DNA of 53,190 nt from Armatimonadota bacterium (GTDB lineage Bacteria; Armatimonadota; UBA10988): the NCBI GenBank assembly GCA_016235455.1, contig JACRKZ010000126.1, positions 1 to 53,190 on the forward strand. Direction: 5' to 3'. The notes beneath the pieces are model-generated. The model had not been told where the DNA came from. It did no database searches and saw only the letters and a list, made by a program, of their open reading frames with translations. Below, one piece after another: positions 39,813-52,200 of the stretch (the stretch's first letter is position 1; each line of letters begins with the position of its first letter). The translations under genes and the position numbers were made by a program.

Positions 39813-41057
39813 CTACTTGCCCGCCATCTGGTCCTTGGTATGGCATTGGGTGCAGAACTTGGTGTTGTGGCACTTGGTGCAGAGCGACTTCTCGCCGAAC
39901 TTGACCTCGCCGTTGTGGCCATAGACGAACCCGCTCGGGTGCGGCATGGCGGTGCCGTGGCAGGCCTGGCAGTCGCGGCTCTGATGACAGCGCCCGCAGT
40001 CCTCGCGGCCGGCCAGCGCTTCCTTGCCATGGGTCTTGACGAAGCTGTCCGGATGGGGCATCTCGCGGCCGTGGCAGTTGTTGCAGGTGGCCTTGTCGTG
40101 GCACTTGGCGCAGGTCTTGGGCGAGCGCTTGGCGTCCTTGCCGTGCTGCGCGCCGAAGGTCGGCGGGTGCGGCATCTTGAGCCCGTGGCAGCTATCGCAG
40201 AAGTTCTGCTGGTGACACACGCCGCACGCCGGCTGGTTCTGCTTGGCCGCGGCCGGATGACGCGTGACGAAGTCCTGGCCGTGCGGATTGCGGCTGCTGT
40301 GGCACCTGGTGCAGTCGTCCTTCTCATGGCACTTGGCGCACAGGCGCTGGTCGGTGCGGCCGTGAACCGCTTTGAAGGTGGCCGGGTGCGGCATGGTCAG
40401 GCCGTTGTGACAGTTGGCGCACCACTGCGGCTCATGGCACTGGCCGCAGACCTTGGGCTTGGCCTTGGCGTCGGCCATGTGGCTGCCGGCGAAGCCGCTG
40501 GGATGCGGCAACTCGAGCCCGTGGCAGTTGCTGCACTCACGGCGCTGGTGGCAGTAGGTGCAGGAGAGCGTCGCCTCATCACGGCCGTGGCCGCGCGGGA
40601 AGCCGGCGCGCTGGTGCGAGGCCGGCTTGGTGACTGCGGTGTCGGCGTGGCAGGTGCGGCACTTGTCGCTGGCCTGCTGGCCGTCATGGCAGGCCACGCA
40701 GGCCTTGCTCACGCCCCAGGTATGGCGTGCCACGGCCTTGTCGGCGGGCTGCTTGGCGTGGTCCTCGGCGGTGTGACAGGCGTTGCAGTGCAGGCCGCGG
40801 TCGGCGTGCTTGGCGTGCGAGAAGCGCACGCGCGCCGGCGCGTCGGCCAGCGGCGTATGGCACTCGAAGCAGGTCAGCCCGGTGATCGTCTTGCCGTCGG
40901 CGGTGGGCACGGCAGTCACGCCCGGCTTGAGGTGAGCCGAGGTGACAGCGGCCTGCTGCTTGCCGCGCACCGCGGGCCCACACTGGGTGAGCAGCGGCAC
41001 GAGCGCGGCGCAACAAAGCGCGATCAGGCTAGCGCGTCGAGATCGGCCCATCGCCAT
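39813..41057 (-). CDS. 18-heme c-type cytochrome with tandem diheme repeats (possible lipoprotein)
   Basis: I counted 18 CxxCH motifs. N-terminal signal ends in LLTQC. Seven tandem CxxCH-x4-CxxCH pairs. Confidence 0.9.
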   Translation of the reverse strand: MAMGRSRRASLIALCCAALVPLLTQCGPAVRGKQQAAVTSAHLKPGVTAVPTADGKTITGLTCFECHTPLADAPARVRFSHAKHADRGLHCNACHTAEDHAKQPADKAVARHTWGVSKACVACHDGQQASDKCRTCHADTAVTKPASHQRAGFPRGHGRDEATLSCTYCHQRRECSNCHGLELPHPSGFAGSHMADAKAKPKVCGQCHEPQWCANCHNGLTMPHPATFKAVHGRTDQRLCAKCHEKDDCTRCHSSRNPHGQDFVTRHPAAAKQNQPACGVCHQQNFCDSCHGLKMPHPPTFGAQHGKDAKRSPKTCAKCHDKATCNNCHGREMPHPDSFVKTHGKEALAGREDCGRCHQSRDCQACHGTAMPHPSGFVYGHNGEVKFGEKSLCTKCHNTKFCTQCHTKDQMAGK

Positions 41058-41741
41058 TCGTGTCCCCGCCGCGGCCCGCGGCATCCAGTCGTTCGAGTTC
41101 AGCCGGGTGATGTTCGTGCATCTCGTCGCGCGACATCTGCCCGGTCAGCCAGACCATGTTGAACGGCTTGATTCCGCCGGCCAGGTGCACGTGATAGACG
41201 TGACCGACCAGCAGGAAGATCAGCGCCAGCACGCTCTCCAGGCTGTGCAAGTGGAAAGCCACATCGTAGGCCTGTGCGCCGAACAGGCGGTGCGCGATGT
41301 CCTTGAACCACAGCACGAAGCCGGTGCTGATCATCAGGCAACTGCCGCCCGTGGCCGCCCAGTAGTCGAACTTCTCCAGGAAGGAGTAGCGCTCGTAGTG
41401 GGGCTCGGTCGCAGGCCGACCAGATAGAGCGCCAGGTGCCAGGCGTCGGTCAGATCGCGCAGCCGCGGCAGCGTGCTGGGCCGGAACGTGCCCTGGCGGT
41501 AGCGCCCGATCAGGTAGCTCGCGTGCCACAACATGCAGACCAGCAGCATGATGCCGCCCACGCGGTGGATGGCGACCATGGTCTGCGCGCCGCCGAACAG
41601 CGAGGCCACGATTTGCGCGGGCTTGGTGTCGGCATAGCGCTGGGGCACACCGGTCAAGCCAAGCAGCAGCACCGACGTCACCAGCAACTGGTGCTGGCGG
41701 ATCTGGCTGCGGTCCCAGCGTTGATAGCGCCGTCCGCTCAT
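41029..41741 (-). pseudogene. Cytochrome b subunit (FdnI/CbcL-type), split by a 1-nt frameshift near 41410
   Basis: ORF 41334-41741 gives the N-half (QHQLL...LTGVP, IHRVGG). ORF 41029-41529 gives the C-half (PHYERYSFLEKFDYWA, HSLESVLA, GHVYHVH, WLTGQMS, EHHPAE). Confidence 0.8.
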
Positions 41742-42685
41742 GCCTTACCTCCGCTTTGAGCCGCGGCGCGGCTCGCGTTGATCTTGCGCCGGATGATGTC
41801 GAGCAGAATGTGCAAGAACATGGTGCCCAGCACGAGAGTCATCATCAGGATGTGGATCTTGCTGATCAGGAAGACCAGGGGTCGCACCGCCAGACTTGGC
41901 ACTTCGTGCCCGAAGCCCTTGGCGAAGGCCTCGCTGGTGCCCGGATGGCAGCCCTCGCGGCCGCAGCCCTCGGTGTGGTTGGCGGGATTGACCGTCGACT
42001 TGGGGTCCTTCGGACCGCGAATCTCGTGGACCGACGCGGCCGGCGCATGGCAGCTGGTACAAACCGCCACGCGAGCGTCGCCGATCAGGCGCTTGCGGCC
42101 GTGGAAGTGGTGCTCAAACGTCTTGACCACGTTGGTACTGACGTTGTACTGCGCCATGACCTGGCCGTCGGCGTGGCACTTGGCGCAGGTATGGAGTTGC
42201 TGCGCGGGATTGACCGGGCTCTCGATATCATCGGTCATGCTGATGGCATGGTTGCCGTGGCAGTCGTCACACAGTGGCACGCCCCGCTTGCCGGCGCGCG
42301 TCGCCTCGCCGTGCACGCTCTGCTGGTAGCTGGCGAATTCCTTCTCGTGGCAGCCCATGCAGTTGGCCACGGCCACGGCGCGCGCCTTGGGCAGCTTGGC
42401 CACATACGGCGCGAACGCGGGCTTGACGGCCGGCTGCCGGCCCAGCGCCAGGTCGTGCGGACCCAGGCCAAGGTCGCCATGACAGCCGAGACAGCCTTTC
42501 TTGGCGTGCGCGGTGGCGAAGAAGTGCTGCGCATCGACGTACAGCGAGCGGACCTTGCCGTCGGCGTCGCGTTCGGCCAGGCGCTCGTTGCTGTGGCAGA
42601 CCAGGCAATCGTTGCTGACGTCGGCACGCGCGGTCGCGGCCAGCATCAGGCAGCTTGCCAGGCCAAGGAGACGCATCCTCATCAC
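41738..42685 (-). CDS. Membrane-anchored multiheme cytochrome c (6 CxxCH + 1 CxxxxCH), CbcL-periplasmic-domain-like
   Basis: Signal peptide; Y-x-x-SVHG...P-x-C-x-DCHG-x-H-x-I pattern; CGREGCH; C-terminal TM helix containing His (FLHILLD). Confidence 0.88.
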   Translation of the reverse strand: MMRMRLLGLASCLMLAATARADVSNDCLVCHSNERLAERDADGKVRSLYVDAQHFFATAHAKKGCLGCHGDLGLGPHDLALGRQPAVKPAFAPYVAKLPKARAVAVANCMGCHEKEFASYQQSVHGEATRAGKRGVPLCDDCHGNHAISMTDDIESPVNPAQQLHTCAKCHADGQVMAQYNVSTNVVKTFEHHFHGRKRLIGDARVAVCTSCHAPAASVHEIRGPKDPKSTVNPANHTEGCGREGCHPGTSEAFAKGFGHEVPSLAVRPLVFLISKIHILMMTLVLGTMFLHILLDIIRRKINASRAAAQSGGKA

Positions 42686-43611
42686 TTGGCGCCACCTTCC
42701 TTGGTCATCTTGTCAAAGGGCTTGGGCAGGGGATCATGGCACTGCCCGCAGAACCTGGTGTCGTGGCAGTTCAGGCAGGCGGTCGGCTTGGCCTTGGCCT
42801 CGCGTTCGTGCTTCTCCGCGAAGTTCTCGGCGTGCGGGATCTTGACCGAGTGGCAGCGATTGCAGAACGACTCCTGCTCGTGACACATCAGGCATTCGTC
42901 CTGCTTGCCCTTGGCATCGGCTTTGTGCTTGAGCCGGAAGCTCTTGCTCTTGTGGCTGTCGGGCCGGGGCACGTCCGCACCGTGGCATTCGGCGCAGAGC
43001 TCGCCTTGCGGCTTGTTCAGCAGCTTCTTCTCGGTCGTGCCGTGGAAGCTGTGGCACTGGCTGCAGGCCAGCGCGCCTTCGGCCAGCGTGTGGTGCTTCT
43101 TGGCCTTGATCTGGTCGGCCAGATCGTCGTGGCAGGGCGAACACTCTTGGCCCTCGGCGGGCTTGAGCATCTTGGTCCGGCCCGTGGAGCGATGCACCTC
43201 ATGACATTCGGTGCAGGTGGTCACCGCCGCATGGCCGCGCGCGAACCACAGGTCGCTGCTGAGCCCCTGCTTGGCGTGGCACTGCAGGCAGACCTTGGCC
43301 TGCGCTTCACCGTCGAGCTTGGCCCAGGAGGTGATCTGCGCGCGATCCTTGGAGACATGCACGCTGCCCGCGCCGTGACACGCCTCGCACCCGCGCTTGT
43401 CCGCGGGCAGCGTGTCGGCCAGCATGGCCTCGCTGTGTCGGAGCGAGGCCCACAGCTTGGCGAAGCTGCTGTGGCAGGTCATGCAGATGGGGGTGCCAAC
43501 CACCGCCGGCCTGGCCGGCTCGGCCTGCGCCACCGCCAACAGCAGCCCTACGGCTACGGCCAGCGGAAAGGCGACTCCCATGGGGTTGATACGTCGGTCC
43601 AGCGTCTTCAT
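42682..43611 (-). CDS. 11-heme cytochrome c, DmsE/MtrA-like N-terminus plus two diheme modules
   Basis: Signal peptide and 11 CxxCH. GCEACHGAGS-x-H, CTECH-x-x-H and CSQCH-x-x-HG are typical of DmsE/MtrA. Start uncertain (43581, 43611 or 43620). Confidence 0.88.
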   Translation of the reverse strand: MKTLDRRINPMGVAFPLAVAVGLLLAVAQAEPARPAVVGTPICMTCHSSFAKLWASLRHSEAMLADTLPADKRGCEACHGAGSVHVSKDRAQITSWAKLDGEAQAKVCLQCHAKQGLSSDLWFARGHAAVTTCTECHEVHRSTGRTKMLKPAEGQECSPCHDDLADQIKAKKHHTLAEGALACSQCHSFHGTTEKKLLNKPQGELCAECHGADVPRPDSHKSKSFRLKHKADAKGKQDECLMCHEQESFCNRCHSVKIPHAENFAEKHEREAKAKPTACLNCHDTRFCGQCHDPLPKPFDKMTKEGGAK

Positions 43612-43618
43612 CTCGACC

Positions 43619-43685
43619 ATCGTAGGTACAAGGCTCCTGCCAGACGGCGCCCGCGTAGTATAATGGACAGTAGTATCCAGGTCCA
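43619..43685. promoter_or_regulatory. Divergent promoter region between cytochrome operon and radical SAM genes
   Basis: Perfect TATAAT (43659-43664, +), TACGAT (43619-43624, -), and a short TGGAC-N12-GTCCA inverted repeat. Confidence 0.5.
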
Positions 43686-43744
43686 GTTCTATGGTGCCGA
43701 ATCGGCGACGTTGGCCGACCGGCAACGAGGTGGAGGCGCACTAC

Positions 43745-45016
43745 ATGCTCAGCGTGACTCGTTTGCTCTGCGGCACGGCCACAACCAGTGACGCACTACG
43801 TTATGGTCGGCGTGCCGGCAAGATGCCTGCCCACCTGCTGCACTTCTCAGAAGACAAGAAGCCGGTCGTTGTCTGGAACTGCACGCGCACCTGCAATCTC
43901 AAGTGCATTCATTGCTATGCCAGCTCGCGGGACGAGGTTTACCCCGGTGAGTTGAACGGCGACGAGGGCCGGGCCCTGCTCGATGATCTCGCCGCCTTCG
44001 GCGTGCCCGTCGTGCTCTTCAGCGGCGGTGAGCCGTTGATGCGGCACGACATTTTCGAGATGGCGGCGTACGCCAAGTCGTTGGGCATGCGCGCGGTGCT
44101 GTCGACCAACGGCATCCTGATCGATGAAGCCAACGCCGACCGGATCAAAGAAGTCGGCTTCTCTTATGTGGGCATCAGCCTCGATGGCCTGGAAGAAGTC
44201 CACGACAAAGTGCGCGGCGTGCGCGGGGCCTTCAACAGCTCCATCGATGCCATTCGTCGCTGCCGCGCGCGTGACATCCGAGTCGGCCTGCGCTACACCG
44301 TGCACAAGCTCAACATCGACGAGTTGCCCGGCATCTTCGACCTGCTGGAAGCAGAGGACATCCCGCGCTGCTGCTTCTACCACCTGGCCTATGCCGGTCG
44401 TGGCGACAAGCTCCAGCGCTTCGACCTGACACCGCCCGAGACGCGCAAGGCGATCGACTACCTGTTCGAGCGCACGCTGGACTTCCACCAGCGGGGGCTG
44501 GATAAAGAGATCCTCACCGTCGACAACCACACCGACAACGCCTACCTCTACCTCAAGGTGCTGGAGATGGACCCGGCTCGTGCTCGCGAGGTCTACCAGA
44601 TGCTGGCTTGGAACGGTGGCAACCAGTCGGGTATCGCCATCGTCTGTGTCGACAACCTCGGCAATGTCCATCCGGACCAGTTCTCCTGGCATGTCGACCT
44701 GGGCAACGTCAAGGACCGGCCGTTCTCCGAGATCTGGGAAGATACCAGCAACCCGCTGATGGCACTGATGAAGGAGAAGCCGCGGCAGATCACCGGCAAG
44801 TGCAGCCGCTGCCGCTTCTTTGGCTTGTGCAACGGCAACCTGCGCGTGCGAGCACACAGCTTCCACGGCGACTGGCGTGCGGAGGATCCTGCCTGCTACC
44901 TGACCGAGGAAGAGATCGACATCAACCTGCCCGTGCCCGACCTGTCGCAACCGGTCATTGTGGATCCGGCCGACCCCGCGGACGAGGCCGAGGCTGTGAG
45001 CGAGTGTGGCCGATGA
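43745..45016 (+). CDS. ahbC: Radical SAM/SPASM protein, AhbC/NirJ1-like (Fe-coproporphyrin synthase-like)
   Basis: MLSVTRLL...DALRYGR, KKPVVVWNCTRTCNLKCIHCY, FSGGEP, EILTVDNH, G-x-VHPDQF and SPASM CSRC...C...DPACY. Confidence 0.82.
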   Translation: MLSVTRLLCGTATTSDALRYGRRAGKMPAHLLHFSEDKKPVVVWNCTRTCNLKCIHCYASSRDEVYPGELNGDEGRALLDDLAAFGVPVVLFSGGEPLMRHDIFEMAAYAKSLGMRAVLSTNGILIDEANADRIKEVGFSYVGISLDGLEEVHDKVRGVRGAFNSSIDAIRRCRARDIRVGLRYTVHKLNIDELPGIFDLLEAEDIPRCCFYHLAYAGRGDKLQRFDLTPPETRKAIDYLFERTLDFHQRGLDKEILTVDNHTDNAYLYLKVLEMDPARAREVYQMLAWNGGNQSGIAIVCVDNLGNVHPDQFSWHVDLGNVKDRPFSEIWEDTSNPLMALMKEKPRQITGKCSRCRFFGLCNGNLRVRAHSFHGDWRAEDPACYLTEEEIDINLPVPDLSQPVIVDPADPADEAEAVSECGR

Positions 45017-46164
45017 GCAACGAACACCCCCCACTCCACGCGCAAGCCGCCGCTGAGCGACACCGCCACGACGCGCGCATGCCGACGGTCGACTTCAACC
45101 TGGCGCCGTTCACCGTCGTCTGGGAGATGACCCGCGCCTGCGTGCTGCGCTGTGTGCACTGCCGCGCCGTGGCCCAGCGATCGCGCCATCCCAAGGAGCT
45201 GACGACCGACGAAGGCAAGGGGCTGCTGCGCACCATCAAGGAGTTCGGCAACCCGATCCTCGTGCTGACCGGCGGCGACCCGCTGATGCGGCCTGACCTG
45301 ACGGAGTTGATCAGCTACGCCGTGCAGGACCTGGGCCTGCGCGCCTCGCTGACGCCGAGTTCGACGCCGCTGGTCACCAAGGCGCGGCTCGAGGAGATCA
45401 AGGCCGCGGGCATCAAGCGCCTGGCCATGAGCCTCGATGGCGCCACGGCCGAGGTGCACGATGCCTTCCGCGGGTTCAGCGGCTCGTTTGAGCGCACCAT
45501 GGGCATCCTGGCCAGCTTGCGCGAGATCGACCTGCCGTTCCAGATCAACACCACGGTCACCAACACCAACGTCGACACGCTGCCCGAGATCATGGAGCAT
45601 GTGCGGGCCAGCGGCGCAGTGCAGTGGAGCGTCTTCTTCCTGGTGCCCACGGGCCGGGCGAACGTCGAGCAGATGGTCTCGCCCGAACGCCACGAGGAGC
45701 TGATGCACTGGCTGGCCGAACTCAGCGAGTCCGCGGTGTTCGACATCAAGTCCACAGCAGCGCCATTCTACCGGCGCGTGGCCATCGAGCGCCGTCGCGC
45801 CGCGGCTGGCGGTGGGCCGGTGACCTTCGCTGGTGCCGGCTTCCGCTACGAGGACGGCCTGGATCGACCGGTGCAGGGCGTCAACGACGCCAAGGGCTTC
45901 GTGTTCATCTCGCACATCGGCGAGGTCTACCCCAACGGATTCCTGCCGGTAAGCGCAGGCAACATCCGTGACGAGAGCCTGGTCGACATCTACCGCGACA
46001 GCCAGCTCTTCCGCGACTTGCGCAACCCCGACAAGCTGACCGGCAAGTGCGGTCGCTGCGGGTATCGCGAGGTCTGTGGAGGCAGTCGGGCCCGAGCCTA
46101 CGGGGTCACGGGCGACATGTTCGCCGACGACCCGGCCTGCTCATACCAGCCCCCGAGCGCGTAA
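45013..46164 (+). CDS. Radical SAM/SPASM protein, TIGR04053/AhbD-like
   Basis: DF-x-x-APF-x-V-x-WEMTRACVLRCVHCRA, LTGGDP, FFLVPTGR, VND-x-KGFVFISH-x-G and CGRC...CGGSRARAY...DPAC. ATGA overlap with the upstream gene. Confidence 0.82.
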   Translation: MSNEHPPLHAQAAAERHRHDARMPTVDFNLAPFTVVWEMTRACVLRCVHCRAVAQRSRHPKELTTDEGKGLLRTIKEFGNPILVLTGGDPLMRPDLTELISYAVQDLGLRASLTPSSTPLVTKARLEEIKAAGIKRLAMSLDGATAEVHDAFRGFSGSFERTMGILASLREIDLPFQINTTVTNTNVDTLPEIMEHVRASGAVQWSVFFLVPTGRANVEQMVSPERHEELMHWLAELSESAVFDIKSTAAPFYRRVAIERRRAAAGGGPVTFAGAGFRYEDGLDRPVQGVNDAKGFVFISHIGEVYPNGFLPVSAGNIRDESLVDIYRDSQLFRDLRNPDKLTGKCGRCGYREVCGGSRARAYGVTGDMFADDPACSYQPPSA

Positions 46165-46168
46165 CGGA

Positions 46169-46220
46169 AAACGGTGTCAGGACCCGTTTCTCGACAGAGA
46201 AACGGGTCCTGACACCGTTT
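46169..46220. repeat. Perfect 24-bp inverted repeat (REP-like / bidirectional terminator)
   Basis: AAACGGTGTCAGGACCCGTTTCTC-GACA-GAGAAACGGGTCCTGACACCGTTT between convergent genes. Confidence 0.85.
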
Positions 46221-46233
46221 ATGGTTTTGGGGC

Positions 46234-48174
46234 CTACCCGAGGAAGTGGTAGACGGGCAGATCCCAGAAGATGCCCACCAGGTTGAACAGCCCGCCGACC
46301 ACGAAGTCACCGAGGATCAGGCCCAGGAAGAAGGGCACGGCCTTGCGGTAGAGCTTCAGGCCGCCGTAGCGCACGATAGCTACCTTGCAGCACCAAGCGA
46401 TGAGCAGCGAGAGCCAGACCTGGTCCATGCTCCACGACGAACTGACCGCGAAGCCCACGGGATGCAGCGGGAAGCCCACCCAGCGCACGCGCACGAGGAA
46501 CAGCGACACGCAGCAGAAGAAGCCGACGATGATGGCGTAGAGGCTACCGGGCTCGGGTCGCACCGGGTTGTTCATGTAGCTGGCCAGCCGGCCCCAGGCC
46601 TCGTTGCCGAAATACTTGAGCAGCCCCCACGTCTTGGCGCTGTCGGCGCCGTAGCGGTAGTGCGGGTCGAGCACCGCGATGTAAGCCGAGATCAGCCCGA
46701 CGACAGCCGCAGCGGCCATGGCGCCGGTCATCTTGCGCTGGTCGATACCCAGGCGACCGCTGGCCACCAGGCTCTCCAGGTGGATGGGCATGGGGTGCGA
46801 GCGGTGCGCGCGGTTGAACCAGTGATAGAACGAGAAGCCAGTGAGCGTCCACGGCGTGAACACGCGCGGCCCCCACATGCGCGGCAGCATGGTCCCGGGG
46901 TAGGCGTCGTGCAGGTCGTGCGTGGGTGAGCCGAACTCGGCGCGCAGCCGGTCTACGGCGATGGAGATGGCGAAATAGCCGATGAACACGGCGAAGATGG
47001 CGCCCCACTCCATGCGCATCTGGCGGCTGAACCAGACCAGGAACGAGAAGCCGGCAATGAAGCCCCAGAAGGCCAACGCATAGGGCATGCCCTCGCGCCG
47101 CGACCTGGCGTATTCGGGGTCCTGGCCGAAGGCGCAGCGCACGACACGCCAGATATGCTTGCGCCCCGCATAGAGCGACAGCACCGCCAGCGCCACGTAG
47201 CCGCCGTAGGCTTGCTCGGGAATGAACGGCGCGCTCGGGCTGCCCGTGGTCAGCCCGAAATACGAGCCCAGCACTCTTTGCAGCTTCCAGTACCAACAGA
47301 AAATCCAACTCGAGCCGAGCACATCCAGCGGCAGCAGATAGCCGATGCCGATGGCAAACGGGAAGACAAACAGCGGCGTGCCGCCCACCGGGCGCCAGTG
47401 AGTGCTGTTGACATACGTGCTGAGGTACTTGGTGCGTGTGCCGACCTCGGGGATGCCTGGGTACCACTGGTGCAGGTTGTTGACCACATTGATGGTCAGC
47501 GGGATGCAGAAGGCGATCCACATGTAGCGGCTGCGGAAGAAGCTCAGGTCGGGCTGCACCATCTCCAGTGGCAGCGCCACCAGCGGGAAGGTCAGTCGTT
47601 CGTTCTCCACCCACTGCCGCCGCAAGACGGTGTTGATGCAGTAGAACATGAACAGGATGACCATGGTGAAGGCGAACCAGCAGCCGAGCGGTGCCACCCA
47701 GGCGCGCCAGTGCTCAAAGAACGAGCTGTGCCCAACGAAGAAGGCCTTGAGGGCAGCGGGGTCACGTGGCACGAAGTACCGTGGCAGGTACTCGCCGAAG
47801 GTCTCGGCCCAACGGTTCTCCGGTGTCGCCTTGTAGATGGGCCAACAGAGCACGCCCATCAGCACCTGGGCTTGGTCATGCCCGGCTAACGCGCTGGCGA
47901 ACGACACCATGAAGTAGATCACGATGAAGTCGGCGCGTGTGAGCAGTGGTTTCCAGACCTTGGCCAGCACGTAGTTGCCCGCCACCAGCAGGCTCAGCAC
48001 GATGACCACGTTGAAGAACAACGAGTAGGTGGTCGGGTGGCCGGTGTACTTGATGGCCTCCATCATCACCACCCAGTACGCGTTCACCGGGATGAACGCC
48101 AGGGCGATGATCACCGCGCGCGCTCTCACACGCGATTCGATGCTGGTCTGCTGGGTGTCCGACGCCTCCACCAT
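46234..48174 (-). CDS. DUF6785/DUF6784-like polytopic membrane protein (putative transporter)
   Basis: About 15 TM helices; LRRQWVENERLTFPLVALP, RLRAEFG, FPLHPVG and YGGLKLYRKAVPFFLGLILGD motifs. Confidence 0.75.
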   Translation of the reverse strand: MVEASDTQQTSIESRVRARAVIIALAFIPVNAYWVVMMEAIKYTGHPTTYSLFFNVVIVLSLLVAGNYVLAKVWKPLLTRADFIVIYFMVSFASALAGHDQAQVLMGVLCWPIYKATPENRWAETFGEYLPRYFVPRDPAALKAFFVGHSSFFEHWRAWVAPLGCWFAFTMVILFMFYCINTVLRRQWVENERLTFPLVALPLEMVQPDLSFFRSRYMWIAFCIPLTINVVNNLHQWYPGIPEVGTRTKYLSTYVNSTHWRPVGGTPLFVFPFAIGIGYLLPLDVLGSSWIFCWYWKLQRVLGSYFGLTTGSPSAPFIPEQAYGGYVALAVLSLYAGRKHIWRVVRCAFGQDPEYARSRREGMPYALAFWGFIAGFSFLVWFSRQMRMEWGAIFAVFIGYFAISIAVDRLRAEFGSPTHDLHDAYPGTMLPRMWGPRVFTPWTLTGFSFYHWFNRAHRSHPMPIHLESLVASGRLGIDQRKMTGAMAAAAVVGLISAYIAVLDPHYRYGADSAKTWGLLKYFGNEAWGRLASYMNNPVRPEPGSLYAIIVGFFCCVSLFLVRVRWVGFPLHPVGFAVSSSWSMDQVWLSLLIAWCCKVAIVRYGGLKLYRKAVPFFLGLILGDFVVGGLFNLVGIFWDLPVYHFLG

Positions 48175-48908: not shown

Positions 48909-50885
48909 CTAGCCGGGCGAGAAGTCGTAGATCGGCCGACCCAGGTAGAGACTCAACACGCTCCAGAACGCGCCGACCACATACTCGCCCAGCAGCAGAC
49001 CATAGCACACCGGCAAGCACTTGCGGTAGAGCTTGTAGCCGCCGTACTTGAGCACCAGCGACTTCACCGCCCAAGCGATGACCATGCACATCCAGAAGTA
49101 ATCGACGCCGAACGTCATGCTCAACGCATAGCCGGCGGGATGGAAGGGGAACCGTAGCGACACCACACGCATGAGCATGAGGAACACTGTGAAGCCCATC
49201 GCCGCCACAAAGGCGACCACGCGCGGCACGTTCATCGCGTGGTCGCGCGGGGCCAGCCCTTCGATCCAGGCCGCGGTCTGGCCCACCTGCCCCCAGTTGT
49301 GCATCGTCATGCCATTGAAGCTCGAGGTGTTGGTATAGGAGAGCTGGATGCCGATGACATAGACCACGATGCCGCCGACATACACGCCGAGCAGCATGAT
49401 CCAGCCCAGGCCGCGGCTGGAGATGCCCGCTCGCTCGGCCATCTTGAAGCCTTCCATCATGGGCGGCATGATCTGCGTGCGGTAGCCCCGGCCGGTGAAC
49501 CAGTAGAAGAGCGGATGCATGATCAAGTTGCGCGCGCCGATGGCATCGACCCCGCGCAGGCTGACCAGCAGGTACATCGAGTTCACGCCCAGCAACTCAT
49601 GCGCCGGCGGCCCAAGTTCGGCGCGCATGCGGGTGATGGCCAGGGCAATGACCAGATAGACGCCGAAGAACGCCGGAATGAAGCCCGGTGTCATGCCTGC
49701 CTTGCGGCAGAAGTAGTAGATGAAGGCTGACCCGGCCACCATGCCCAGCGCCGCAAGGCGATAGGAGAACGGTTCGTTGCTGTCGTCCAAGCCACCTGGC
49801 CGACCCAGAATCGTGGCCAGCACGGCCTTGAGATGATGCCGCGCCAGCCATAGGGTGTAGAGGCACAGCACGAACAACGCGCCACCCGTCTGCTCGGTGA
49901 CGTAGGGCAGTTCCGGCATGTTGGGCAGGTTGGCCGCGGCGGATGCGACGCGCTCGGCCTTCTGGAACAGGTAGAAGAACCAGATGGAGAAGGACAGATC
50001 GAGCGGCAGGAAGAAGCCGAGCGCGATGATGAACGGGTACAGCGGCACCGGCATCCAGCCGACACGGTTCCAAGGGAAGGTTGTGAACAGCTTGCCCCAG
50101 TCGTAGTGGTCATGCCGCAGTCGGAGCAGCGGTACCGCGGGCACGAAGCCGTGCAGGCCGTTGAGCAGGTCGATGGACGCCGCGATGGCGAACCCTATCC
50201 AGAACAACCGGTTGCCGAAGAAGGCCTTGTCGCCGCCATTCGCGGTCATGGCCAGGGGCAGCTGGATCAGCGGGAAGCTGAGCTTCTCGTGCTCCGTCCA
50301 CTGCCGCCGCAGGAAGACGTTGACGCTGATGAGCAGCAGGCCGAACGCGGCGATGAACTGAGTCCACCAGAAGACAGGCGTCACCCAGGCCTTCCAGTGG
50401 TCCTTCAGCAGCAGGCTGGAGTGCCCCTCGAAGAACGGCTTGTAGACGCTCTCGCGGCTGACCACCAGGTGCTGAGGCAGGAAGGGCTGCAGCAGCGAGG
50501 CCCACTTGTTGCTGTCATTGGCACCGTAGTATGGCAGCGCCAGCGAGGGCAACTGGAGCTGCATCGAGTCATGCCCGGCCAGGGCCGTCGGCATGTACAG
50601 CAGGATGTAGATGACGATCAGCTCGCCCTGGGTCAAGGCCAGCCGCGGCGCGACGCGCTTGACGCCCATGTTGAGAACGATCACCACCAGCACGGTGAAG
50701 ATGACGTTCCAGAACAGGCTGAGCGCCGAGGGGTGGCCACTGTGCCAGATGCCCTCGACTTGCATGGTCCAGTAAATGTTCGGCGGGATGAGCAGGAGCC
50801 CTAGGATCACCGACCGCCAGGTGATAGCGCCGCGACGTGGCGACACGCCACTGTCGACGTTTCCGTTGTCTGCCTCAGTTGCCAT
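48909..50885 (-). CDS. DUF6785/DUF6784-like polytopic membrane protein (putative transporter)
   Basis: Paralog of 46234-48174: LAGHD, LRRQWTEHEKLSFPLIQLP, RMRAELG, FPFHPAGY and YGGYKLYRK motifs. Confidence 0.75.
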   Translation of the reverse strand: MATEADNGNVDSGVSPRRGAITWRSVILGLLLIPPNIYWTMQVEGIWHSGHPSALSLFWNVIFTVLVVIVLNMGVKRVAPRLALTQGELIVIYILLYMPTALAGHDSMQLQLPSLALPYYGANDSNKWASLLQPFLPQHLVVSRESVYKPFFEGHSSLLLKDHWKAWVTPVFWWTQFIAAFGLLLISVNVFLRRQWTEHEKLSFPLIQLPLAMTANGGDKAFFGNRLFWIGFAIAASIDLLNGLHGFVPAVPLLRLRHDHYDWGKLFTTFPWNRVGWMPVPLYPFIIALGFFLPLDLSFSIWFFYLFQKAERVASAAANLPNMPELPYVTEQTGGALFVLCLYTLWLARHHLKAVLATILGRPGGLDDSNEPFSYRLAALGMVAGSAFIYYFCRKAGMTPGFIPAFFGVYLVIALAITRMRAELGPPAHELLGVNSMYLLVSLRGVDAIGARNLIMHPLFYWFTGRGYRTQIMPPMMEGFKMAERAGISSRGLGWIMLLGVYVGGIVVYVIGIQLSYTNTSSFNGMTMHNWGQVGQTAAWIEGLAPRDHAMNVPRVVAFVAAMGFTVFLMLMRVVSLRFPFHPAGYALSMTFGVDYFWMCMVIAWAVKSLVLKYGGYKLYRKCLPVCYGLLLGEYVVGAFWSVLSLYLGRPIYDFSPG

Positions 50886-52200
50886 CCATGTTACCCGTGG
50901 CCAAACGGAAGGCGGCCACGGCTCGATGCGCGGCCACCAGGGCCAGCACACGGTCCAGGGCAGCCTTGCGCTGCTCCACCAGAGCCTGCTGAACGTCAAT
51001 CAGGGTGGCGCGTTGACGGTCATACTGCAACGCTTTGACCCGGTAGGCCTCCTGGGCGGCTGCCAGCCGCTCGGTGGACAGGGCATAGCGGGCCCGCGCG
51101 GCGCGGTCGTCCAGCCAGGCGCGCCGTACTTCCAGTTCGATGCCCGCGCGCAGTTCGTCCAGCCCGACCTGCGCGAGTAGCGCGCCGCCACGCGCCTCCT
51201 GCTCGGCGCGCTGGGCGGCGTTGTCGGTCGACGAAAGTGGCCAGCGCGCCACGACCCCAACGCGAGCGTCCCAGGCCGGGTCGAACGCCGCGGCGGTACC
51301 GCCGCCCAGCGTCGCCGTGGCCGACAACGTGGGCCCGCGCTGCGCGCGCGCCAACTCAGCGCCGGCCCGGGCCTCGACGATGCGGGCCGCCAGAGCCACG
51401 ACCTCCGGCCGATGGTCGCGCGCCCAGCTCACCGCTGCGGCGATGTCGCCCAGCTCGGCCGGCAGTTGGTCGGTGCCGCTGACGACGATCGGCGCGGCCA
51501 GTGATGGGCGGCCGAGCAGGCGGTTCAAGTTGCCCTGCGCCAGGGCGACGCCGTTCTCGGCCTCGACCACGGCGCCCCGTGCCTCGAGCACACCGGCGCG
51601 CGCCTGCAGTCGGTCCACCTCGGCCACGCGTTCCACGGTCAGCAGGTCCTCGACCCGCTTGGCCTGCGCCTCGGCCAGCCGCAGCGCTTCGCCGGCCAGC
51701 ACCGAGCCGGCCTGGGCCGCGGCCAGGTCGAGCCAGGCCAGCCGCACGTCGTAGTCCAGTCGCGCCAGGGCTGCGCCGTACTCGGCCCGAGCGGCGGTGG
51801 CACTCGCCTCACAGCGACGTTGCAGCGCATCGCCGCCCGAGGCCAGGAGGATCTGCTCCACGCTGATCTGAGCGCGCGCGCTGACATCGCGTCGCACCAC
51901 GGCGCGCGGAGCGGCTGGATCGCGCACCACTGGGCCGAGCTCGGCGTTGGCGGTGGCCTTGACGTCGGGTCGGACCCGCGGCCGCAGCAGGTCGGCCTGC
52001 CCCAGGGCGTTGTCGCGGACGAGCCGCGCGTGGCGCGCCGTCAGGCTGCTCACCAGCGCCTCGGCGACTGCCTGGTCGAGCGTCAGGGGTGCCGGCGCGG
52101 TCGTAGACGTAGGGTTGACCACCGTCTCACGCGGCGCGGCGGGCGGGGTCGGCCCCAGGGGCTCCGCGGCCAACATCACCGCCAGCATCCAGACCGTCAT
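50875..52200 (-). CDS. TolC family outer-membrane efflux protein
   Basis: Signal peptide; LTLDQAVAEAL, LNRLLG, RPEV, A-x-A-x-R-G-P-T-L and EVRRAW...Y motifs with a two-repeat OEP layout. Confidence 0.85.
   Translation of the reverse strand: MTVWMLAVMLAAEPLGPTPPAAPRETVVNPTSTTAPAPLTLDQAVAEALVSSLTARHARLVRDNALGQADLLRPRVRPDVKATANAELGPVVRDPAAPRAVVRRDVSARAQISVEQILLASGGDALQRRCEASATAARAEYGAALARLDYDVRLAWLDLAAAQAGSVLAGEALRLAEAQAKRVEDLLTVERVAEVDRLQARAGVLEARGAVVEAENGVALAQGNLNRLLGRPSLAAPIVVSGTDQLPAELGDIAAAVSWARDHRPEVVALAARIVEARAGAELARAQRGPTLSATATLGGGTAAAFDPAWDARVGVVARWPLSSTDNAAQRAEQEARGGALLAQVGLDELRAGIELEVRRAWLDDRAARARYALSTERLAAAQEAYRVKALQYDRQRATLIDVQQALVEQRKAALDRVLALVAAHRAVAAFRLATGNMDGN

Follow-up and report, generated by a model that had tools for sequence, protein, structure and literature searches.

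A Predicted Trans-Envelope Electron Conduit Built on a Diheme-Repeat Cytochrome in Armatimonadota

Four adjacent minus-strand genes on a 53,190-nucleotide contig of an Armatimonadota bacterium (JACRKZ010000126.1, assembly GCA_016235455.1; this whole stretch is hereafter the window) encode an exported 11-heme cytochrome (A11), a 7-heme periplasmic cytochrome with a C-terminal transmembrane (TM) helix (B7), an FdnI-type diheme cytochrome b and a putatively lipid-anchored 18-heme protein (D18). On balance, we favor the reading that they belong to a trans-envelope conduit in which electrons would pass from menaquinol through cytochrome b, B7/D18 and A11 to a decaheme cytochrome seated in an outer membrane barrel, and from there via an OcwA-like lipoprotein to an external acceptor. 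This reading is built on gene content, heme motifs, homologies, synteny, gene fusions and a model of the barrel. The window (contig C85) belongs to a 6.5-Mb genome (G000; 93% complete, 0.84% contamination), which was compared with five relatives of the same family (G001–G005), with the wider phylum, and with metagenome runs from groundwater and freshwater.

A Putative Split CbcL-Type Quinol Oxidoreductase

The initial annotation of this DNA had recognized 11-, 7- (with a TM helix) and 18-heme genes on the minus strand, and the motif counts agree: the cluster holds 36 c-type heme motifs (11 in A11, 7 in B7 and 18 in D18), and 2000 shuffles preserving composition gave at most 2, 2 and 4, respectively. 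Of the ATGA junctions it described, the one at 41738–41741 stands, but 42682–42685 reads GTGA or TGATG. It had also taken cytochrome b for one open reading frame (ORF); in the window the gene is frameshifted, its two Ni_hydr_CYTB halves lying in two frames.

The cytochrome b profile has a sole match in the PDB, FdnI (1KQF_C, E = 6e-15), along its full length, as expected of the HydC/FdnI-like diheme cytochrome b of the CbcL family. His17, His59, His167 and His182 (G001 numbering) are present in 120/120 fused homologs (the best 120 of 2232), as is Glu170, with His73 in 119; a histidine in the membrane helix of B7 is variable (74 of the same 120). Taken together, B7 and cytochrome b match the CbcL-type histidine pattern (helices 1, 2 and 3, and two in helix 5), and the seven motifs of B7 fall within the range of the CbcL-type periplasmic multiheme c domain (3–23 CxxCH). 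B7 has a signal peptide and one TM helix at residues 277–295; four more helices are suggested by the FdnI alignment, just two of which were detected by a hydropathy scan. CbcL proteins are single fused polypeptides, but here two genes are found, in the window and in 5/5 family relatives; the two are fused in many other members of the phylum. Because of the histidine pattern and these fusions, we name B7 and cytochrome b a putative split CbcL/MtrH/MtoC-type quinol oxidoreductase, on the strength of their features and the FdnI match rather than of a direct comparison with GSU0274. This supports the CbcL-like quinol oxidoreductase with multiheme partners of the initial annotation, and no named Geobacter CbcL was among the matches listed (best 120 of 2232). 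The label CbcBA was considered and rejected, since all four FdnI-aligned histidines lie within cytochrome b itself (120/120 of the best 120 of 2232). The B7 profile matched PDB 28PB_A at positions 29–189 of 348 only, the N-terminal half; that entry (278 aa, seven motifs visible) is probably CbcA, which is listed under “2BPB” in one source (PMC13591261).

In several Armatimonadota loci (L072, L079, L082 and L083) the B/cytochrome b pair is duplicated in tandem in a single cluster, possibly yielding two quinol oxidoreductases that differ in potential. The quinone site of FdnI is located at the cytoplasmic heme, and by analogy that of the present cytochrome b may be also. For CbcL, a quinone site at the cytoplasmic heme was inferred to build no proton motive force (Levar et al., bioRxiv 2022.08.31.506072).

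The Repeat Wire and A11

D18 comprises four c7-like hemes followed by seven tandem diheme repeats of ∼38 aa. With 20 spare histidines for the 18 hemes of D18 and 11 for the 11 hemes of A11, all hemes of both proteins could be bis-His ligated, as in wires. A cysteine follows the hydrophobic leader of D18 in 7/7 relatives examined and is read as a putative lipoprotein anchor. Four of the best 150 of 1698 representative matches are fusions of D18 to cytochrome b, joined via an extra TM helix; one (P0138, 975 aa) is a triple fusion of B7, cytochrome b, TM helix and 18-heme domain, and the other three have the order cytochrome b, TM helix, D. On account of these fusions we place D18 at the periplasmic side of the inner membrane. 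Among D relatives of greater length (26–32 hemes), some carry a NapC/NirT-like anchor and others are cytochrome b6 fusions; at three loci (L076:13463–15844, L077:3864–5987 and L080:8859–11126) a cytochrome b6 fused to a 13–17-heme D-type repeat domain lies beside a Rieske gene. D18 aligns with a NapC/NirT-type protein of Carboxydothermus ferrireducens at 33% over 362 residues. The published list for that organism includes a constitutively made 20-heme “putative Q-oxidase” (PMC7829351), which may belong to the D18 family.

In the structural model of D18 the repeats reach a pLDDT of mostly 80–88. A search of the PDB with a heme-free, elongated 414-residue model found no fold match, which for so weak a query is no proof of a new fold, and an Atlas search returned generic c7-type clusters only. 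MtrA extends 80 Å across ten hemes (PMC7198977); by analogy with that spacing, D18 could measure ∼15 nm if linear.

The seven N-terminal hemes of A11 are MtrA/DmsE-like and are followed by two D-type diheme repeats. The best PDB match of its family profile is to residues 62–240 of MtrA (6R2Q_A), the periplasm-facing half, and the D repeats stand in place of the barrel-inserted end of MtrA. Its score against TIGR03508 is 101 bits (cut-off 192), and with 11 hemes and no adjoining porin A11 thus falls outside MtrA/DmsE. Complex prediction for B7 and D18 with A11 as partner gave 0.02 against a mark of 0.32, evidence neither way; a joint alignment prepared for folding the triple fusion (15% column identity) seemed mis-registered and was left unused.

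A Predicted Porin, Decaheme and Surface Lipoprotein Encoded Elsewhere

None of the 13 proteins scanned between 38.4 and 52.9 kb is a porin, molybdenum (Mo) enzyme or NrfD. The statement of the initial annotation that there is no porin therefore holds for the window, but it fails for the genome: contig C4 of G000 encodes an MtrA/DmsE-type decaheme and a 537-aa partner, orthologs of genes that are linked to the cluster in three of the five relatives. The model of the partner has 26 strands (pLDDT 84), and its best fold match is MtrB (6R2Q_B, E = 4e-14, TM 0.73), the next matches scoring ∼0.5. We predict from this model that the partner is an MtrB-fold, 26-strand porin beside an MtrA-type gene. 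The barrel gene is found in 6/6 family genomes, some orthologs having weak sub-threshold matches to PF11854, and the decaheme orthologs of G001, G002, G004 and G005 pass the TIGR03508 cut-off. Divergent from the decaheme gene in 6/6 family genomes is a lipoprotein gene with 8+1 hemes, the best PDB match of which is OcwA (6I5B, E = 4.5e-12), a surface terminal reductase of Thermincola (PMC6703420). An Omp85 gene is also present in G000, indicating an outer membrane. Synteny, genome search and folding of the C4 barrel together rule out the premise of a porin-less genome, and the chain without porin or terminus that was first proposed gives way to one with decaheme, barrel and OcwA-related lipoprotein on C4, the decaheme and barrel genes lying in the same cluster in 3/5 family relatives.

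Further cytochromes were observed. Contig C147 of G000 encodes a 7-heme ortholog beside CcmF (L041:6954–7928) that is related to OcwA and PDB 6QVM; in relatives its gene adjoins ResB/CcsA or the porin. Two paralogous 7-heme probable lipoproteins of G000 with a long heme-free N-terminal domain (L045:6120–7400 on C40 and L049:7247–8452 on C130) are surface-cytochrome candidates. In several Armatimonadota (L036, L070–L072 and L077) the decaheme is fused in-frame to an outer membrane barrel (950–1035 aa, 10–11 hemes). A three-motif ORF on C18 was dismissed as a shadow frame and a two-motif ORF on C4 as a zinc ribbon.

Conservation in the Family and Phylum

A synteny survey, proposed with the initial annotation, found the order A11–B7–cytochrome b–D18 conserved in 5/5 family relatives. 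Directly upstream of the cluster in G002 and G004 are genes for a DmsE-type decaheme, a ∼560-aa heme-free barrel protein and a 7-heme cytochrome; G005 has the same genes upstream with Rieske/b6 and 26-heme genes intervening, and G003 is fragmented at the locus. Decaheme and barrel genes thus share the cluster in 3/5 relatives.

Across 301 genomes of the phylum, which includes non-independent kin and many fragmented assemblies, the cytochrome b was found in 105, D-type proteins in 79 and DmsE-type decahemes in 54. Cytochrome b accompanies D in 71 of the 79 D-bearing genomes (within 5 kb in 66), and 41 of the 54 decaheme genomes have both cytochrome b and the D wire. The decaheme lies within 12 kb of the cluster in 13 genomes belonging to several families. 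Three single-contig genomes each have one cluster containing hemA, a decaheme::barrel fusion, ResB, a 7-heme cytochrome, CcsA, B/cytochrome b, a 28-heme D and ahb genes. The guess that the DNA came from a poorly studied phylum proved correct, the host belonging to the Armatimonadota.

It is possible, if on the whole doubtful, that in much of the Armatimonadota a D-repeat wire (10–32 hemes; mounted on FdnI-type b, b6 or a NapC-like anchor) bridges the periplasm with no need of diffusing shuttles, linking a CbcL-type complex, an MtrB-fold porin and an OcwA-type reductase. If this were so, these sugar degraders would be overlooked metal or humic respirers.

Proposed Mechanism and Alternatives

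The four genes would represent the inner membrane and periplasmic half of the conduit. The FdnI-type cytochrome b would exchange electrons with menaquinol through its two b hemes, with B7 (by its C-terminal helix) and lipid-anchored D18 forming one complex on its periplasmic face. D18 and soluble A11 would carry electrons over the periplasm to the MtrA-type decaheme in the MtrB-like barrel encoded on C4, and the decaheme would pass them to the OcwA-related surface lipoprotein, from which Fe(III), humics or partner cells would receive them. In this scheme we infer that the proteins form a complex and make these contacts, where they are located, how long the wire is, that electrons run outward and what accepts them. 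Heme b could be supplied by the products of the divergent AhbC/D-like genes and the c hemes attached by Ccm proteins. What argues for the conduit is the gene order kept in all five relatives, the three single-contig clusters, the clustering of decaheme and barrel with the module in relatives, the barrel gene in every family genome, the b–D fusions, the co-occurrence in 41/54 decaheme genomes, the OcwA-related lipoprotein and the supply of spare histidines. A number of observations weigh against it. The C4 decaheme (9 CxxCH and 1 CxxxxCH) scores 190.6 bits, under the TIGR03508 cut-off of 192.2; the barrel of G000 matches nothing in Pfam or NCBIfam, PF11854 included; the OcwA match is weak and patchy; and a pTM of 0.37 for the whole D18 model leaves its overall shape not fixed. 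Two RNA runs were found, with just 5–6% of words, and runs with a share below 0.2, these two included, count as no evidence. The barrel genes of G000 and G001 lie apart from the cluster, and of the 71 genomes that encode both cytochrome b and D, 30 have no DmsE-type match at E ≤ 1e-35, so the module can exist without the porin route. These last two points also favor a periplasm-only hub or capacitor, in which quinol would be oxidized and electrons delivered to NrfA or octaheme HAO/OTR-like enzymes or stored, the porin-cytochrome of C4 being a separate system. NrfHA and several octahemes are available in G000 for such a role, and D repeats are fused to cytochrome b6 too. However, decaheme and barrel occur in the same cluster in the 13 genomes noted above, a catalytic gene is absent beside the cluster, NrfD was not found in G000, and NrfA has its own NrfH; we consider a purely periplasmic role rather unlikely.

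The direction of flow may also be questioned. A conduit resembling MtoABC would run inward, taking electrons from an electrode, Fe(II) or reduced humics to menaquinone at the cytoplasmic heme; this would form an electrogenic loop of the Fdn type, and nitrite or NO would be the acceptor. CbcL/MtrH/MtoC homologs occur in Fe reducers and oxidizers alike with no distinguishing feature (PMC6295460), MtoAB-like genes of an Armatimonadota metagenome-assembled genome (MAG) were read as Fe(II) oxidation (PMC9671151), and G000 encodes both NrfHA and NorB. Set against this, the surface partner resembles a terminal reductase, OcwA, and the named relatives of D18 are Carboxydothermus proteins, among them one of the Fe(III) reducer C. 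ferrireducens; inward flow seems to us less probable still than the periplasmic alternative. Least credible is a decaying cluster, in which the frameshifted cytochrome b would mark loss of function in the lineage. The gene in the window is indeed short by four bases (713 nt from ATG to stop), but contigs from 4/4 runs compared (two studies), which elsewhere barely differ from the window, carry four additional bases at 41404 that restore an intact cytochrome b of 238 aa; the source sample may be among these runs. The gene is intact in a same-genus genome, and every heme ligand is retained. Cytochrome b is thus normally intact, a pseudogene was rejected on the intact allele of the 4/4 runs, and the four-base gap stems from the assembly or the strain, although the deletion may be real as a minority or single-strain allele. 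The trans-envelope conduit, with flow probably outward, is retained as the preferred reading.

Heme Supply, Terminal Options and Neighboring Genes

The coordinates of the cluster and its neighbors are given in table 1. The sigma-70-like sites of the divergent region are two overlapping consensus matches at 43637–43685, with no proof of function. Both divergent genes encode radical SAM/SPASM enzymes, as had been proposed, and the heme-synthesis character ascribed to them is now specified as Ahb-type. The AhbC-like protein, in which a CxxxCxxC motif was found, scores 567 bits against TIGR04546 and 518 against TIGR04054, under the equivalog cut-offs of 650 for each; the AhbD-like protein passes TIGR04053 (474 bits, cut-off 395) and is below the cut-off of TIGR04545 (AhbD; 372, cut-off 500). 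A fused AhbAB above both cut-offs is encoded in G000 together with HemA and a CysG N-terminal domain, and ferrochelatase (PF00762) was not found in this 93% complete genome. CcmB, CcmC, CcmE and CcmF are present, so the cytochrome c maturation genes sought by the initial annotation exist. Flanking ahb genes were seen at 5/19 and 5/15 loci examined, G000 and G001 being the only family members that have them there; the link recurs but is not fixed. G000 also has a very large expansion of the URO-D family (43 PF01208 matches), which probably represents methyltransferase-like paralogs rather than HemE.

Table 1. Features of the multiheme cluster and its divergent neighbors in the window
Feature	Position	Strand	Details
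D18, putatively lipid-anchored 18-heme protein	39813..41057	-	18 CxxCH
FdnI-type diheme cytochrome b, quinone-reactive subunit	41029..41741	-	Two PF01292 halves, four bases short near 41404
B7, 7-heme periplasmic cytochrome, C-terminal TM	41738..42685	-	6 CxxCH + 1 CxxxxCH
A11, exported 11-heme cytochrome	42682..43620	-	11 CxxCH; alternative start possible at 43581
Divergent intergenic region, shared	43621..43744	.	Back-to-back sigma-70-like sites
AhbC/NirJ1-like radical SAM/SPASM enzyme, siroheme-dependent heme synthesis	43745..45016	+	TIGR04546, TIGR04054 scores
AhbD-like radical SAM/SPASM enzyme, TIGR04053 family	45013..46164	+	ATGA-coupled to AhbC-like gene
20-bp hairpin, probable bidirectional terminator	46171..46218	.	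Sequence

Terminal options in G000 comprise NrfHA, Rieske/b6 and several octahemes (HAO/OTR-like). The sole COX1-family match is a NorB-type NO reductase, which fits an anaerobe, no genome-wide cytochrome bd search having been made. Molybdopterin-family matches on C101 and C88 were discarded as Mo terminal enzymes, being NuoG-like (a third match, on C37, lies outside the scan). Downstream of the Rieske/b6 genes, L043:8304–10076 (C185) encodes a partial cytochrome bd subunit I domain with one CxxCH. In the window, two DUF6785/DUF6784 polytopic membrane proteins are encoded a short distance apart, beside a TolC-type gene (46234–48174 and 48909–50999, both minus strand).

Significance and Relation to Known Systems

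The initial annotation called the chain undescribed. That is incorrect for clusters of CbcL/MtrH/MtoC beside mtrAB/mtoAB, already described by Zhong and Shi with no Armatimonadota among them in the accessible text (PMC6295460); it stands for the repeat wire and its spread over the phylum, neither of which was found in the literature searched. Kato et al. reported MtoAB-like genes in one Armatimonadota MAG (PMC9671151), membrane multihemes of unknown function are on record for the phylum (PMC11788075), and one MAG has iron-reduction genes (PMC13055281); the accessible text of Garber et al., including that of the supplement, contains no Armatimonadota match (PMC11475568). No description of the module in Armatimonadota, with or without CbcL, was found in a search that left subscription papers and bioRxiv supplements outside its scope. 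The new part is therefore the uncharacterized repeat wire and its distribution, within a conduit that is complete as predicted and belongs to an unexpected phylum.

The prediction supplies a complete and testable wiring diagram for extracellular electron transfer where print has isolated MtoAB-like genes and unassigned multihemes (PMC9671151; PMC11788075). Because standard profiles miss the porin, screens find too few organisms of this kind. As a modular wire without a solved structure, the 38-residue diheme repeat is a clear target for structure work, and it bears on how electrons get over the periplasm when no small shuttles take part.

The closest counterparts of the B7/cytochrome b pair are Geobacter CbcL (GSU0274), Rhodoferax MtrH and Gallionella/Dechloromonas MtoC (PMC6295460; PMC9129911). 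Those are single polypeptides with 9 c hemes and six TM helices (a few members have four or five), whereas here two genes are found, with 7 c hemes, five predicted helices, a sixth only in the b–D fusions, and a tethered 18-heme wire as an extra feature. Geobacter CbcBA/Cbc5 likewise has a separate 7-heme cytochrome with a C-terminal TM helix, a diheme cytochrome b and a larger periplasmic multiheme neighbor (CbcC, 12 hemes); however, CbcB has three histidines of its own and borrows the fourth from CbcA, in contrast to the four within the present cytochrome b (bioRxiv 2021.04.15.440034; PMC13591261). The decaheme and predicted 26-strand MtrB-fold barrel on C4 repeat the pairing of MtrAB/MtoAB (PDB 6R2Q; PMC7198977), and the N-terminal MtrA region is common to A11. 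MtrB and the C4 barrel are nevertheless only ∼10% identical and PF11854 misses the latter, MtrC is replaced by an OcwA-related lipoprotein, and other Armatimonadota have decaheme and barrel fused. Compared with the NapC/NirT-anchored 20–21-heme cytochromes of Carboxydothermus (PMC7829351), D18 is without the NapC-like part, has a putative lipid anchor instead and belongs to a diderm host. A cytochrome spanning the periplasm was proposed earlier for PCC3 of Gallionellaceae (PMC10734462), where a predicted long protein of 21–27 hemes likewise accompanies a porin and an inner membrane partner; the likeness is one of description only, and in the Armatimonadota that partner would be a CbcL-type cytochrome b.

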